DNA from: an uncultured Pelagibacteraceae bacterium
Lineage (GTDB): Bacteria; Pseudomonadota; Alphaproteobacteria; Pelagibacterales; Pelagibacteraceae
Direction of reading: 5' to 3'
NCBI GenBank assembly: GCA_902519375.1
Contig: CABYJS010000003.1
Span: forward strand, 12,837 to 76,836
DNA: 64,000 nucleotides
Below are positions 21,598 to 32,642 of this stretch, piece after piece. Both the position numbers and the translations under genes were made by a program. The notes under the pieces were generated by a model. That model was given only the letters and a program-made list of their open reading frames with translations, ran no database searches and was not told the DNA's origin. How positions within the stretch are numbered: the first letter of the stretch is position 1; each line of letters begins with the position of its first letter.

Positions 21598-22470
21598 ATG
21601 ACAATAAATAAATTAGCAATCATAGGTGGTAGTGGTCTTTATGATGTTGAAGAGTTCAAAAATAGAGAATTATTGGATTTAAACACACCTTGGGGAAAAC
21701 CTTCTGATCAAATATTAAAAACCAATTATAATGATAAAGAAGTTTATTTTCTACCTCGCCATGGAAGGGGTCATTTTATTTCTCCATCAAAAATAAACTT
21801 TAGAGCAAATATTGATGCTCTTAAACAATTAGGAGTAACAGATATTGTATCGGTTTCTGCAGTTGGTTCTTTAAAAGAAGATTTGCCACCAGGGAAATTT
21901 GTAATTGTAGATCAATTTATAGACCGAACATTTGCAAGAGAAAAAACATTTTTTGACGATGAGATTGTTGCTCATGTTTCTATGGCACATCCGACATCTA
22001 ATGGTTTGATGAATGCTTGTGAAGAAGCAATTAAAAAAGAAAAAATTGAATATCAAAGAAATGGGACATATGTGGTTATGGAAGGTCCTCAATTCTCAAC
22101 TCTTGCAGAATCAAATTTATATAGATCATGGAAAGCAGATGTAATCGGTATGACAAATATGCCTGAAGCAAAATTAGCTAGAGAAGCAGAAATTCGTTAT
22201 GCATCTGTATCGATGGTTACTGATTATGATTGTTGGCATCCAGATCACGAAAATGTTGATGTTCAACAGGTGGTAAAAGTTTTATTAGGTAATGCTGCCA
22301 AAGCAAAGAATATGATTAAAAATTTAATAGAAAATTTTGAAAAATACGTTGACCCTAATGATCCAACTAATAATTGTTTAGATGTGGCTATTATTACTGC
22401 TCCAGAAAAAAGAACAAAAAAAACAATTGATAAACTCAAAACTATAGCTGGACGTGTTTTAAAAAGATGA
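21598..22470 (+). CDS. mtnP: S-methyl-5'-thioadenosine phosphorylase
   Basis: IIGGSGLY, RHGRGH, EGPQFSTLAES, GMTNMPEA, VTDYDCW. Confidence 0.95.
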   Translation: MTINKLAIIGGSGLYDVEEFKNRELLDLNTPWGKPSDQILKTNYNDKEVYFLPRHGRGHFISPSKINFRANIDALKQLGVTDIVSVSAVGSLKEDLPPGKFVIVDQFIDRTFAREKTFFDDEIVAHVSMAHPTSNGLMNACEEAIKKEKIEYQRNGTYVVMEGPQFSTLAESNLYRSWKADVIGMTNMPEAKLAREAEIRYASVSMVTDYDCWHPDHENVDVQQVVKVLLGNAAKAKNMIKNLIENFEKYVDPNDPTNNCLDVAIITAPEKRTKKTIDKLKTIAGRVLKR

Positions 22471-23180
22471 AAAAATTTTTATTTATTATTATTACAACCT
22501 TTATTATTTGCAGTGTTGCATTAGCAAAAAAAAATTTTTCAAGGGGTTATTTTTTTGCTTTAATTGATGATAATGGCTCAACTGGGTTTGTCTTAAGATA
22601 TCATAATGAAAAAAATCCAAATAAATTTGAAATTATTCTTCCTAAAAACTCCCCACCAATAATTTCAGATTATAATTCTAAATATGGTGTTTTGGGTGGA
22701 AAAAGAAAAAAAAAACACAAAGGTATAGATTTTTATCAAAAACCAGGAGAAAAAATTTTAGCAGCAGCTGATGGTAAAGTTTATGGATTAAAGAATAAAG
22801 ATAAATGTGTTGGAAATCAATTTGCAATTTATTTTGGAAAATCTCCGGAGGGAACTAGGCTTTATGCAACACATATGCATGTTGGAAAAATACACGTCAA
22901 AAAAGGTGATGTTGTAAAAAGAGGTCAACACGTTGCTGATAGTGGAAATTTAGTGAAAACTAGATGTGGTGGGGGAATGGAGCATCTTCATTTTCATATG
23001 TCAAAAAGAAAAGGTTCAAATCCTAATTCTTGGGGTACTTGGCGATTTTTAGGAGAACCTAGTGGATGGATTAACCCCCACAAGTATTGGACAAGAGGTG
23101 TTGGAAAACCAGAATGTTTTGTAGAGGGTAGAAAATACCCCGATGGTCTTCTTACATTGCCAGTGGAATGTAAAAATTAA
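22467..23180 (+). CDS. Secreted M23 family metallopeptidase
   Basis: Signal peptide, HKGID (HxxxD), HLH (HxH). Confidence 0.85.
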   Translation: MKKFLFIIITTFIICSVALAKKNFSRGYFFALIDDNGSTGFVLRYHNEKNPNKFEIILPKNSPPIISDYNSKYGVLGGKRKKKHKGIDFYQKPGEKILAAADGKVYGLKNKDKCVGNQFAIYFGKSPEGTRLYATHMHVGKIHVKKGDVVKRGQHVADSGNLVKTRCGGGMEHLHFHMSKRKGSNPNSWGTWRFLGEPSGWINPHKYWTRGVGKPECFVEGRKYPDGLLTLPVECKN

Positions 23181-23183
23181 ATT

Positions 23184-24254
23184 ATGATAATTGAGGGAAA
23201 AGAATACCGTACAATTTGGTTTGAAAATAATGTTGTAAAAATTATTGATCAAACAAAACTTCCACATCAATTTATAATTAAAGACTTAAAAACAGTAAAT
23301 GATGCGATAAACGCCATTAAAGTAATGGAAGTGAGAGGTGCACCTTTAATAGGAGCTACAGCAGCTTATGGATTAGTTTTAGCTATTATAGAAAATAATG
23401 ATCAATCGTTTTTAAAAAAATCTGCAGAAAATTTAATAAGTTCAAGACCAACTGCAATAAATCTCAAGTGGGCTGTTGATAGAATGATGAATAAATTGTC
23501 AGGTGTTAATAGTGAAAAAATTTTTGAAATAGCACTTAATGAAGCAAAAGAAATTTGTGAGGAAGATATTAAATTTTGTTTAAATATTGGATTAAATGGA
23601 CTTAAAATTATAGAAGAAATTTACAATAAAAAAAAAGATACAGTTAATATTTTAACTCATTGTAATGCAGGTTGGCTTGCGACAATAAATTGGGGGACTG
23701 CAACTTCACCAATATATCATGCACACAAAAAAGGTATTCCAGTTCATGTTTGGGCTGATGAAACAAGACCAAGAAACCAAGGAGCCAATTTAACTTCATA
23801 TGAGTTAAATGAAGAAGGAATTAAAAATACAATTATTGCAGACAATACAGGTGGAATTTTGATGCAAAGAGGTGAAGTTGATATGTGTATTGTTGGGACA
23901 GACAGAACTTTATCTAATGGAGATGTGTGTAATAAAGTTGGAACCTATCTTAAAGCGTTAGCAGCAAATGATAATAATGTTCCATTTTATGTAGCTTTAC
24001 CAAGTTCTACAATTGATTGGAGTATTAAAGATCATAAAGATATTCCAATTGAAGAGAGAAATTCACATGAATTATCTCATGTGGAAGGTTTAGATGAAAA
24101 AGGAAATATAAAGAAAATACAAATATATCCAAAAAAAAGTAAATCGAAGAACTTAGCTTTTGATGTAACACCTGCAAAATATGTTACAGGATTAATTACT
24201 GAGAAAGGTGTATGTGAAGCATCAGAAAAAGGACTAAAAGAATTATTCAAATGA
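23184..24254 (+). CDS. mtnA: S-methyl-5-thioribose-1-phosphate isomerase
   Basis: VRGAPLIG, SRPTAINL, THCNAGWLA, ETRPRNQG, NKVGTY, AFDVTP. Confidence 0.95.
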   Translation: MIIEGKEYRTIWFENNVVKIIDQTKLPHQFIIKDLKTVNDAINAIKVMEVRGAPLIGATAAYGLVLAIIENNDQSFLKKSAENLISSRPTAINLKWAVDRMMNKLSGVNSEKIFEIALNEAKEICEEDIKFCLNIGLNGLKIIEEIYNKKKDTVNILTHCNAGWLATINWGTATSPIYHAHKKGIPVHVWADETRPRNQGANLTSYELNEEGIKNTIIADNTGGILMQRGEVDMCIVGTDRTLSNGDVCNKVGTYLKALAANDNNVPFYVALPSSTIDWSIKDHKDIPIEERNSHELSHVEGLDEKGNIKKIQIYPKKSKSKNLAFDVTPAKYVTGLITEKGVCEASEKGLKELFK

Positions 24255-28988: not shown

Positions 28989-29501
28989 ATGTTTTACGAT
29001 TTAAAAGATAAAAAACCAAAAAACTCTGGCGAAAATTGGGTAGCGCCTAATGCAACCATAATAGGTGATGTTACCTTAGAGAAAAACTCAAGTATTTGGT
29101 TTAATGCTACATTAAGGGGGGATATAGAAAATATTCATATAGGTGAGGGTTCAAACGTCCAAGATGGAAGTGTTCTGCATACTGACCCAGGCTATCCAAT
29201 TAAAGTTGGAAAAGATGTAACCATAGGTCATATGGTTATGCTTCATGGCTGTACGATAGGGGATAATAGTTTAATTGGAATTGGTGCTGTAATTTTAAAT
29301 AATGCTAAAATTGGAAAAAATTGTATTATAGGTGCAAAAGCTTTAATTACTGAAAATAAGGAAATACCAGACAACTCTTTAGTGATTGGTTCACCTGGAA
29401 AGGTGGTTAGAGAAGTCTCTGAGGAAGAAAAAAAAGCAGTTTTTGAAAATACCAAACATTATCAAGATAACTGGAAAAGATATTCAAAATCTATATTCTA
29501 A
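28989..29501 (+). CDS. Gamma-class carbonic anhydrase family protein
   Basis: Hexapeptide repeats, [22 protein letters not shown]. Confidence 0.9.
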
Positions 29502-29506
29502 TTATT

Positions 29507-29947
29507 ATGCCAACTTACACTGTAACAAATTCAAATTTTAACTTATCCTCAAAACAACAAAAGAATTTAGCTGAGGGAATAACTAAAGTTCACAATGTAG
29601 TTACAGGGGCTAATACTTATTTTGCACAAGTTATATTTAATAAAACTAAAAAAAATAATCATTTTATGGGAGGTAAAAAAGTAAAAGAACCATCCATGTT
29701 TTTATTGGGTCAAATTAGAGCTGGACGATCAAAAGAAGTAAAAGACAAATTAATTTCAGATTTAAAAGATGTGATGGTAAAAAATTCCAAATTAGATGAA
29801 ACCCAAATTTGGGTTTACATAAATGATCTTCCACCATCTCAGATGATTGAATATGGAGCGGTTTTACCAGAATCAGGTAAAGAGAGCGAGTGGTTTACAA
29901 ACTTATCACCGAAACTTAAGAAAAAACTCTCTGCAATTGAAAATTAG
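29507..29947 (+). CDS. Tautomerase superfamily, cis-CaaD/Cg10062-like
   Basis: After Met removal: P1, H28, R70, R73, Y103, E114; C-terminal EYG..LP..G.E..WF. Confidence 0.85.
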   Translation: MPTYTVTNSNFNLSSKQQKNLAEGITKVHNVVTGANTYFAQVIFNKTKKNNHFMGGKKVKEPSMFLLGQIRAGRSKEVKDKLISDLKDVMVKNSKLDETQIWVYINDLPPSQMIEYGAVLPESGKESEWFTNLSPKLKKKLSAIEN

Positions 29948-29948
29948 T

Positions 29949-30548
29949 TTAAGGAACTAACCAAGTTTCTTTTTTAGTTTCTAAATCAAACCGAGCTCTA
30001 CGATGGCCTTTAGCTGCAAGATAAAGCCACTCAATTAATTTTATTTTACATTGAATTACTGTAAAATTTTTATAACCTTCTTCACTTTGCTCCATAGTAT
30101 ATTCAAAATTGTCTAATTCAGGTTTTAATCCAGATGTTGGTGATGCAGATTCTGAACCCGGGCCATTATCAACTAAATAACATTTTCTACTAATATGCTG
30201 AGTTTTTGACCAAGATTCTTTTGTAATTTCATTGTTGTGATTTATTACACATTCAATTTTTAATCTGACTTGTATCTTTTCGTCTTTATCATAAAAAAGC
30301 ATCGCTGCTTTTGGATTTTTTTTTAGTTTCTCAATCTTGTCTGATCTTATATCGCTGTGAAATTGAACTGTATTATTTAGTTGATCTGATTTTCTTAGAA
30401 CAACAATTCTTCCATCAAAATCAGATTGGTCACCACAAATGAAAGTGGGTATTCTAAATTGTGATGCTCTATTGGTTATTGCATCATCTAGCATAAGCCA
30501 GACCTTCTTCTTTATCTCATTAAAATCTTCGTAGTATGCTGGTTGCAT
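29949..30548 (-). CDS. Pyridoxamine 5'-phosphate oxidase-like FMN-binding protein
   Basis: RIVVLR, FHSDIRSDK, LFYD, EWLYLAAKGHRRARF. Confidence 0.85.
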   Translation of the reverse strand: MQPAYYEDFNEIKKKVWLMLDDAITNRASQFRIPTFICGDQSDFDGRIVVLRKSDQLNNTVQFHSDIRSDKIEKLKKNPKAAMLFYDKDEKIQVRLKIECVINHNNEITKESWSKTQHISRKCYLVDNGPGSESASPTSGLKPELDNFEYTMEQSEEGYKNFTVIQCKIKLIEWLYLAAKGHRRARFDLETKKETWLVP

Positions 30549-30554
30549 ACGAGG

Positions 30555-31424
30555 CTACTTTCTAAATCTTTTAATTAAACTTGATGTATCCCATCGATTT
30601 CCACCCAGACCTTGAACTTCACCATAATATTTATCAACAAGTTCAGTTACAGGTAACAAAGAACCGTTATTTTTTGCTTCATCCATTGCAATCTTTAAAT
30701 CTTTTCTCATCCAATCAACAGCAAAACCAAAATCAAATTTGTCATCAATCATGGTTTTATATCTATTTTCCATCTGCCAAGATTGAGCTGCGCCTTTTGA
30801 AATTACCTCTATAACATCTTCCATATTTAATCCTGCTTTTATTCCAAAATTGATAGCTTCAGACAAACCCTGAACCAATCCTGCAATACAAATCTGATTA
30901 ACCATTTTAGCTAACTGTCCATTACCAGGACCACCAAGTAATTTCATTTTTTTACTGTAACAATCTATTTTATCTTTCGCTTTGTCAAAGTCAGCTTGAT
31001 CTCCACCAATCATAACAGTAAGTGCGCCATTTTCTGCACCAGCTTGTCCACCAGATACAGGAGCATCTAAAGAACCAAAACTGTGTTTTTTTGAATATTC
31101 ATAAATTTCTCTAGCAATCGTTGCAGAAGCAGTAGTGTTATCAATGTAAACAGATCCTTTTTTAATTGTTTTAAAAACACCATTGTCACCAAATGTTACT
31201 TCTCTTAAATCGTTATCATTTCCTACACATGTAAAAATATATTCAGCATCTTTTGCTGCTTCAGCTGGTGTTTCAGCCATTTTACCTTTGTATTCTTTAA
31301 TCCATTTCTCTGCTTTAGATTTAGTTCTATTAAAAACAGTTACATTGTGTCCGGCTTTTGATATATAACCAGCCATTGGGTAGCCCATAACCCCAAGACC
31401 TATGAAAGCAACATTACAAGTCAT
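30555..31424 (-). CDS. 3-hydroxyisobutyrate dehydrogenase-like beta-hydroxyacid dehydrogenase
   Basis: FIGLGVMGYPMA, DAPVSGG, KMVNQ, WMRKDL. Confidence 0.9.
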   Translation of the reverse strand: MTCNVAFIGLGVMGYPMAGYISKAGHNVTVFNRTKSKAEKWIKEYKGKMAETPAEAAKDAEYIFTCVGNDNDLREVTFGDNGVFKTIKKGSVYIDNTTASATIAREIYEYSKKHSFGSLDAPVSGGQAGAENGALTVMIGGDQADFDKAKDKIDCYSKKMKLLGGPGNGQLAKMVNQICIAGLVQGLSEAINFGIKAGLNMEDVIEVISKGAAQSWQMENRYKTMIDDKFDFGFAVDWMRKDLKIAMDEAKNNGSLLPVTELVDKYYGEVQGLGGNRWDTSSLIKRFRK

Positions 31425-31433
31425 AATTTTTTT

Positions 31434-32642
31434 ATGTTTAAGAGTTTAAGTTTAAAAGTAATTATATTTGGATTTATATTTACATTTTTTTCAAGTTTTG
31501 GACAGAGTTTTTTTCTTGGCTTATTTAATTCGAGCATACGTGACACCCTTTCTATCACACAGGGACAATTTGGATCAATTTATGCCTCAGCAACTTTATT
31601 AAGTAGTGTTCTTTTAATTTGGGTGGGTAAAAAAATTGATGATATTAATATATTTAAGTTTGCATTTTTTGTAACTCTACTTCTCTCTTTCTCATGCTTT
31701 TTCTTTTCTAAGATATCATCTATTGGATTTTTATTTGTTGCTATATTTCTTATGAGATTTTCAGGTCAAGGTATGATGTCTCACACTGCAACTACTACTA
31801 TTTCTAGATACTTTACAAAATCTAGAGGAAAAGCATTAAGCACAAGTTGGTTTGGTCTTTCCAGCGCAGAATTTATCCTACCAGTCTTAATAGTATATTT
31901 ATTAACGATTATAAGTTGGCAAAATATTTGGATGTCAGTTTCAATTTTAGTTTTAATATTTTTACCAATGGCTTCTTTTGTTTTAATCAAAAATTTAAAT
32001 TTTGATTCAAGAGAAGAAATAAAAGAAAATGATCATAAAGAAAAAGATATTTTTCAGTGGAAAAGAATTGAAGTTTTAAAAGATTATAGATTTTATATTA
32101 TTTGTTTAAACATGTTGGCCATGCCATGGATTGCCACTGGGGTATTCGTATATCAATCCTTCATTTTAGAGTCTAAAGGTTGGGGAACTTTTGTTATTGC
32201 TCAATCATTCATGATTTACTCAATTTTATCAGTAGTAACTTTATTAATTTCCGGTTTTTTAATTGATAGGTTTACTAGCAGAAAGTTGCTTATTTTTATG
32301 AATATTCCTTTGATGACGTCTTCCTTAGTCTTAATTTTTTTTGACACATCTATAACCGCATTTATATTTTTGGGTTTAATAGGTATTTCAAATGGACTAG
32401 CTAACGTTCTGGGGTCTTCTACATGGGCTGAGATTTATGGGGTGAAATATATTGGATCAATTAAAGCTCTTTCTACAGCATTAATGGTTTTTTCTACTGC
32501 ATTTGGAACAGCTCTATTTGGTCTTCTAATTGATCAAGGATTTTCTATCGAGCAGATAGCATTTGTATCTTTTATTTATATCTTAATTTCTATTATCCTT
32601 CTCTTTTTTGTGAGAAATAAGCTAAATCCCAAATATATTTAA
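31434..32642 (+). CDS. MFS transporter
   Basis: About 12 TM segments, SSFGQSFF, GFLIDRF, WAEIYG. Confidence 0.85.
   Translation: MFKSLSLKVIIFGFIFTFFSSFGQSFFLGLFNSSIRDTLSITQGQFGSIYASATLLSSVLLIWVGKKIDDINIFKFAFFVTLLLSFSCFFFSKISSIGFLFVAIFLMRFSGQGMMSHTATTTISRYFTKSRGKALSTSWFGLSSAEFILPVLIVYLLTIISWQNIWMSVSILVLIFLPMASFVLIKNLNFDSREEIKENDHKEKDIFQWKRIEVLKDYRFYIICLNMLAMPWIATGVFVYQSFILESKGWGTFVIAQSFMIYSILSVVTLLISGFLIDRFTSRKLLIFMNIPLMTSSLVLIFFDTSITAFIFLGLIGISNGLANVLGSSTWAEIYGVKYIGSIKALSTALMVFSTAFGTALFGLLIDQGFSIEQIAFVSFIYILISIILLFFVRNKLNPKYI

Follow-up and report, generated by a model that had tools for sequence, protein, structure and literature searches.

A putative cis-CaaD/Cg10062-type hydratase gene carried as a solitary accessory trait by SAR11 bacteria

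The window analysed here, a 64,000-nt stretch of DNA from an uncultured Pelagibacteraceae bacterium, carries a gene of the cis-CaaD/Cg10062 family, the product of which may act, with a slightly better than even probability in our estimation, as a cofactor-free, cis-CaaD/Cg10062-type Pro1 hydratase with a small 3-substituted acrylate or a 2-alkynoate/allenoate as its substrate, the gene being held as a solitary accessory trait. It is otherwise an ordinary uncharacterised member of its family, already annotated as 'tautomerase family protein'. What the cis-CaaD/Cg10062 family does in nature has been an open question since 2008; its sole efficient member acts on a compound formed when a synthetic nematicide is degraded. 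SAR11, the most abundant heterotroph of the ocean, discards almost everything that it does not need, and the family is enriched in it, occurring in 12-15% of the genomes of one genus and 62% of another, as compared to about 2.5% of the sampled Pseudomonadota. This enrichment, together with strong purifying selection, argues for some natural small unsaturated acid in seawater as the substrate. New here are the occurrence in a second genus, four insertion sites and a hot spot of insertion at an operon junction.

The gene, its active site and its fold

The translation of the gene starts with MPTYTV (Met-Pro-Thr), and no in-frame ATG, GTG or TTG occurs upstream of this start after the preceding stop codon. 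Proline followed by threonine is a standard context for methionine aminopeptidase. In the solved homologues the chain begins at the proline which lies opposite residue 2 of the query (phmmer against PDB). With this proline numbered as 1, the codons of all six catalytic residues listed in the initial annotation (Pro1, His28, Arg70, Arg73, Tyr103 and Glu114) could be read directly from the sequence in the register given there, so that the set which accompanies Pro1 is complete in the SAR11 protein:

29507-29947, + strand: cis-CaaD-family (Tautomerase_3) gene, 146 aa (evidence: ORF, translation, PF14832, gapless PDB alignments, AlphaFold2 model, dN/dS)
29510-29512, + strand: codon of Pro1
29591-29593, + strand: codon of His28, cac
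29600-29626, + strand: active-site loop, mature residues 32-40 (T-G-A-N-T-Y-F-A-Q), invariant in 40 SAR11 copies
29717-29719, + strand: codon of Arg70, aga
29726-29728, + strand: codon of Arg73, cga
29816-29818, + strand: codon of Tyr103, tac
29849-29851, + strand: codon of Glu114, gaa

In the loop, T32 and G33 are the residues of cis-CaaD, and A34 is that of Cg10062 and of the family consensus 'TGAP'.

The assignment to the cis-CaaD/Cg10062 family, proposed initially from the letters of the sequence, is borne out by sequence comparison, Pfam and fold alike. The protein matches PF14832 (Tautomerase_3) with 45.1 bits against a cut-off of 25.7, residues 1-130 covering profile positions 1-134 of 138. 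Among PDB sequences, phmmer retrieved cis-CaaD (2flt, E 2.3e-24) and Cg10062 (3n4g, E 1.4e-24), with query residues 2-135 or 2-145 aligned without gaps to residues 1-134 or 1-144 of these proteins, and the cis-CaaD entry 9ng8 (T34A mutant) was likewise aligned without a gap. As the alignments to both enzymes are gapless, the shared numbering reflects homology without insertions or deletions rather than chance. The AlphaFold2 monomer model, built on 48 homologues, reached a pLDDT of 93.3 and has the secondary structure E-H-E / E-H-E followed by two C-terminal helices. A Foldseek search with this model gave TM scores of 0.90-0.94, rmsd of 1.3-1.7 A and 30-35% identity to 2flz, 3n4g and 7m58, and the top fold matches include, according to PDB titles, covalent Pro1 intermediates of acetylenecarboxylate hydration for both cis-CaaD and Cg10062.

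A scan of 1.84 billion cluster representatives returned just 532 relatives at E<=0.001. All six residues are present in 40 of the 73 representatives of 125-175 aa that start with Met-Pro, and in 38 of the 47 that also have an intact C-terminal half. The set is part of the family consensus (MPTYxV...H...TGAPxYFAQV...IRxGR...VWVYLxELP...MxEFGxVLP) and is the family norm, not a peculiarity of the SAR11 gene. In the protein database, 1765 clusters at 90% identity match; the nearest entries bear the name 'tautomerase family protein [Candidatus Pelagibacter sp.]' and are for the most part of marine metagenomic origin.

Distribution, selection and expression

In its own genus (g1, Pelagibacter) the gene was found in 46 of 301 genomes (one per species), and in 8 of the 56 that are of high quality. 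An order-wide sample contained it in 25 of 200 genomes of the same genus and in 13 of 21 (62%) of the sister genus g8, at 53-59% identity; there were no carriers in the nine other genera of this sample (0 of 60 in the sister family). In the high-quality sample of Pseudomonadota, the family occurs in 10 of 393 genomes (~2.5%). The best 80 loci related to the gene, as found with a query of 10 sequences, all belong to single-cell genomes of Pelagibacteraceae, and none of the single-contig (probably cultured) genomes among those listed carried the gene. The gene is accessory in SAR11, yet it is far commoner there than across the phylum. Carriage by phages was also considered: among 2.9 million viral contigs no close relative was found, the single match being 37% identical and located on a contig of 4.9 kb, and a phage-borne auxiliary gene was rejected on the grounds that no pelagiphage carries it in this set.

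Forty genomic copies are under purifying selection, with a median dN/dS of 0.10 at a dS of about 1.2. Sixty-three residues are invariant in these copies, among them all six of the catalytic set and the complete loop 32-40, and 45 of the 46 copies in the genus are intact. In the remaining one, in genome G174 (L046:3965-4443), a single frameshift within an A-rich run interrupts the reading frame near residue 77; the cause is either an assembly error in the homopolymer or recent pseudogene formation. Retention in a streamlined genome, which the initial annotation took as a sign of a natural substrate, has to be restated for an accessory gene that is not part of the core, although the low dN/dS supports a real function in the carriers.

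In two independent studies, RNA libraries yielded assembled contigs that overlap the gene in part. One of them matches it over 154 nt with 0 differences, and contig X3 (29474-29583) spans the 5 nt that separate it from the upstream gene. In RNA runs X1 and X10 some stretches of the gene are without contigs, which is uninformative for expression. These contigs, which may be carried-over DNA, are a weak hint that the gene is transcribed and is co-transcribed with the upstream gene.

A quick maximum-likelihood tree with SH-aLRT support, built without cis-CaaD and Cg10062 themselves, places all SAR11 copies together, with the type of the window nested among the copies of the second slot described below; this topology would fit one acquisition of the gene followed by relocation. 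The sister branch of the SAR11 copies includes a Polynucleobacter-type protein that starts with Met-Ala and thus has no Pro1. The closest relatives outside SAR11 (L244:3995-4435 and L246:3992-4432, both on the - strand, and P0133) come from genomes of ~2 Mb with 43% GC and Polynucleobacter-type names. They start with Met-Ala-Thr-Tyr, so that Pro1 is missing from an otherwise preserved family signature, and adjoin an ArsC/LMW-phosphatase-like gene.

Variable slots and neighbouring genes

The following features of the window surround the gene or mark other sites of interest:

21598-22470: mtnP (part of 21598-24254)
22467-23180: M23-like gene, 237 aa, an insert in the mtnP|mtnA junction of this window
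23184-24254: mtnA (part of 21598-24254)
28989-29501, + strand: core gamma-carbonic-anhydrase-like hexapeptide-repeat gene (Hexapep; 181.8 bits with the gamma-CA model, under its cut-off of 250)
29949-30548, - strand: core PNPOx-like flavoprotein gene (PF12766), with the same neighbours in 5 of 5 tautomerase-less genomes
30555-31424, - strand: core beta-hydroxyacid dehydrogenase gene, HIBADH / tartronate-semialdehyde-reductase-like (PF03446 and PF14833)

The stop codon of the hexapeptide gene lies 5 nt before the start of the tautomerase gene on the same strand, and the PNPOx-like gene is convergent with it, 1 nt from its stop codon; these two genes are the flanks of a variable slot. In 24 of the 31 carriers of this type (80-100% identity), the tautomerase gene follows the hexapeptide gene immediately and on the same strand; the latter probably supplies its transcription. 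Other cargo accompanying the tautomerase gene in this first slot comprises dienelactone-hydrolase-like, DUF1330, MhpD/NahK-like, methyltransferase and aldehyde dehydrogenase genes, and in other genomes the slot holds a GMC oxidoreductase, a methyltransferase, a membrane protein, a hydrolase, DUF1330 or an MhpD-like gene. Copies of the second type (63-74% identity) have the Fe(III) ABC transporter on one side and an SSS symporter on the other. A third position, used in 19 of 29 loci of the sister genus g8, is the mtnP|mtnA interval of an apt<>mtnP-mtnA-aldolase-speD/E operon, with the gene on the same strand as mtnP and mtnA, and two further g8 genomes carry it at a fourth site. The gene is solitary and occupies at least four variable slots. 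Seven loci of distant relatives in other Pseudomonadota had heterogeneous neighbours, with no conserved context among them.

The junction between mtnP and mtnA (loci L167-L226) is a recurrent site of single-cargo insertion in two SAR11 genera. The two genes are adjacent, without the tautomerase gene, in 8 of the 29 g8 loci, while in genus g1 unrelated inserts occupy the junction in 11 of 29 loci and nothing does in the other 18; besides the M23-like gene of this window, the 10 other g1 inserts encode proteins of 220-336 aa. Because the inserts in g1 are varied and unrelated, the junction looks like an insertion hot spot.

Some of the cargo and flanking genes deserve a description of their own. 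The MFS transporter, HIBADH-like dehydrogenase and PNPOx-like genes (window positions 29949-32642) form a trio, a conserved core module the order of which is strictly the same in all genomes of the genus that were examined; its three proteins all score under the curated NCBIfam cut-offs. In four genomes (L030:2055-3437, + strand; L002, L027 and L033) the slot also holds, next to the tautomerase gene, the gene of an aldehyde dehydrogenase whose N-terminus is extended by a long lysine-rich stretch (MVNxLKKTxKKKKKL...). The MhpD-like protein of 260 aa (L032:1968-2747, + strand; L031:389-1171, - strand) has no Pfam match at E<=0.001 and is related to 2-keto-4-pentenoate hydratase / 4-oxalocrotonate decarboxylase (1sv6 and 5d2i, E 1e-11 to 1e-9). 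Its gene is accessory, being present in 20 of 301 genomes of the genus, and SAR11 is not known for aromatic meta-cleavage.

Several candidate partners were rejected. The SSS symporter, divergent from the tautomerase gene in the second slot, is itself core, and its presence in the genome of the window and in 3 of 4 tautomerase-negative genomes makes the association positional. The MhpD/NahK-like gene is co-directional with the tautomerase gene in two loci, but its overlap with the 46 carriers amounts to 2 genomes, where ~3 are expected by chance. The aldehyde dehydrogenase adjoins the tautomerase gene in just 4 of 31 loci. The Rut-pathway intermediate 3-aminoacrylate was dismissed as a substrate, as no RutA was found in five carriers.

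Possible function and comparison with characterised relatives

The enzyme is probably cytoplasmic and homotrimeric. By analogy with the solved relatives, Met1 would be removed and the secondary amine of Pro1 would serve as the general acid, while Arg70, Arg73 and His28 might hold and polarise the carboxylate of a small unsaturated acid of three or four carbon atoms. Glu114 and Tyr103, the latter from the neighbouring subunit, may activate water for conjugate addition at C3, and the adduct of a cis-3-substituted acrylate with a leaving group, of a 2-alkynoate or of an allenoate would then collapse or tautomerise to a beta-oxo acid. The product might be malonate semialdehyde, or acetaldehyde and CO2 in the case of Cg10062-like decarboxylation. 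A malonate/methylmalonate-semialdehyde dehydrogenase above the TIGR01722 cut-off is encoded in the genome of the window and in three other g1 carriers, and for this reason malonate semialdehyde could be assimilated in them; in a carrier from the sister genus (G409, 98% complete) no MmsA was found above the cut-off. As to its expression, the gene appears to have been inserted without a promoter behind or inside core transcription units, so as to borrow their transcription, with no dedicated partner genes.

Other readings of the same data may be considered. It is in our view unlikely that the main activity of the protein is keto-enol tautomerisation of an alpha-keto acid, as in the phenylpyruvate and 2-hydroxymuconate tautomerases. 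Such a function would agree with the automatic IMG name of the homologues ('phenylpyruvate tautomerase PptA'), with weak matches to 4-OT/DmpI models, all of which are far under the cut-offs, and with the general renown of the superfamily for tautomerisation, which cis-CaaD-type enzymes show as a low promiscuous activity (PMC5818174). However, the water-activating pair of Tyr103 and Glu114 and the carboxylate clamp of His28, Arg70 and Arg73 are specific to cis-CaaD-type chemistry and are invariant, tautomerase activity was lost along the path from 4-OT to cis-CaaD together with the equivalent of Arg39 of 4-OT (PMC5818174), and in the genome of the window no meta-cleavage-pathway gene lies beside the tautomerase gene and the MhpD/NahK-like gene was not found. 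It seems extremely improbable that the gene is a decaying or neutral hitch-hiker without a current function: its patchy distribution and the frameshifted copy in G174 would be expected in this case, but the reading is already contradicted by the selection analysis, with a dN/dS of 0.10, 63 invariant residues including the catalytic set, 45 of 46 copies intact and presence in 62% of the sister genus.

Two further explanations draw on gene order. The beta-hydroxyacid dehydrogenase two genes away had been suggested initially to act on the product, and, if it reduced malonate semialdehyde to 3-hydroxypropionate, the two genes would form a functional module; they are indeed close together in the window, and the dehydrogenase family has members acting on C3 semialdehydes. 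This dehydrogenase, though, is encoded on the opposite strand and does not reach any of the curated NCBIfam cut-offs, its best score being 225 bits with the tartronate semialdehyde reductase model, which requires 340.75. The trio to which it belongs is intact and syntenic in five of five high-quality genomes without the tautomerase gene, where the gap between the trio and the hexapeptide gene holds other, unrelated cargo or the neighbours are different, and tautomerase copies at three other positions have no trio beside them. The link is positional only, and the module, largely refuted by synteny, is very unlikely. Only a little less doubtful is participation in the operon for salvage of MTA and 5'-deoxyadenosine (mtnP-mtnA-class II aldolase-speD/E), where the enzyme could act on a sulfur-containing or enolic by-product. 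In its favour is the co-directional placement between mtnP and mtnA in most of the g8 loci and the presence of the gene in 13 of 21 g8 genomes. Against it are the g8 loci that have no tautomerase gene, the behaviour of the g1 junction as an insertion hot spot, filled with unrelated inserts or empty, and the position of the g1 copies elsewhere. None of the intermediates of the DHAP shunt is known to be an alpha,beta-unsaturated carboxylate.

For the Pro1 hydratase that we favour, the algal haloacrylates named in the initial annotation can legitimately be considered as candidate substrates. Haloacrylic acid production is cited for the macroalga Asparagopsis (PMC10919026), which is the sole producer named in the literature examined; an abundant source of 3-haloacrylates or propiolate in the open ocean is not described there, and a coastal macroalgal product contrasts with carriers that are open-ocean SAR11. 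A more adventurous proposal, to which we give a low probability, is that the substrate is a natural, non-xenobiotic compound of marine organosulfur/C3 cycling, for example a (Z)-3-substituted acrylate with a non-halide leaving group, such as the candidate 3-(methylthio)acrylate, which would yield methanethiol and malonate semialdehyde. The placement between mtnP and mtnA in g8 would then be functional and not just a convenient insertion site. If true, a Cg10062-like enzyme would for the first time have a physiological role, and the turnover of sulfur and carbon in the ocean would gain a new step. Genomic context gives no pathway. The SAR11 clade is a reasonable target of substrate screening for the natural substrate of the family.

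The SAR11 protein is just 30-35% identical to any characterised member. Its fold is shared with several members of the family. Ps01740 ('Linker 1' of Pseudomonas sp. UW4, 5UIF) superposes with a TMt of 0.93 and has the equivalents of His28, Arg70, Arg73 and Glu114, but carries Ala at the position of Tyr103 and has no cis-CaaD activity (PMC5818174), whereas the set of the SAR11 protein is complete. N1 (7M58; E 1.2e-22, TM 0.92, 31% identity), an uncharacterised 'linker' node of the cis-CaaD family (PMC5818174), belongs to a different clade.

With cis-CaaD, the SAR11 protein shares the length class and the fold of two beta-alpha-beta units (TM 0.91, rmsd 1.5 A, 35% identity), as well as Pro1, His28, Arg70, Arg73, Tyr103, Glu114, the Thr32-Gly33 pair of the 32-38 loop, and Pro120. 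Thr34, located on this active-site-closing loop in cis-CaaD sensu stricto and singled out as one of its key residues (PMC11641302), departs from the Ala of the family consensus. In SAR11 the position is an invariant Ala34, the same exchange as in the engineered mutant T34A (9ng8). At position 117 cis-CaaD and Cg10062 both have Arg, whereas the SAR11 protein has Ala and the sister genus Glu. The host of cis-CaaD is a soil degrader of the nematicide 1,3-dichloropropene, while the SAR11 gene has no dehalogenation pathway around it: its neighbours are unrelated core genes in place of the haloalkene-catabolic context of cis-CaaD sensu stricto, and no MSAD-type (Tautomerase_2) or other tautomerase-superfamily gene was found in the genome of the window (G000, 75% complete).

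The best overall superposition was obtained with Cg10062 ('CgX' of Corynebacterium glutamicum; 3N4G, 7MS0), with a TM of 0.94 and rmsd of 1.3 A at ~31% identity, the alignment being gapless over 144 residues including the C-terminal helix. The PTYT N-terminus, the six residues and Ala34 are the same in both proteins, but the loop 32-38 reads A-H-A-P-K-Y-L in Cg10062 and T-G-A-N-T-Y-F in SAR11, and position 120 is Met in the former and Pro in the latter. According to PDB entries, Cg10062 hydrates acetylenecarboxylate via covalent Pro1 intermediates. Despite its complete active site it is an inefficient cis-CaaD which is not isomer-specific, a homologue of unknown function that, like the SAR11 gene, is without a known physiological role or pathway context (PMC5818174), in agreement with the remark of the initial annotation that the natural substrates of the family are unclear. 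A complete residue set is thus no guarantee of efficient dehalogenation, and, as this set is common in the family and Cg10062 with all six residues is a poor dehalogenase, the six residues define the family and the type of chemistry but not the substrate. Beyond them, the SAR11 protein reads as a mosaic, being cis-CaaD-like at some positions and Cg10062-like at others.
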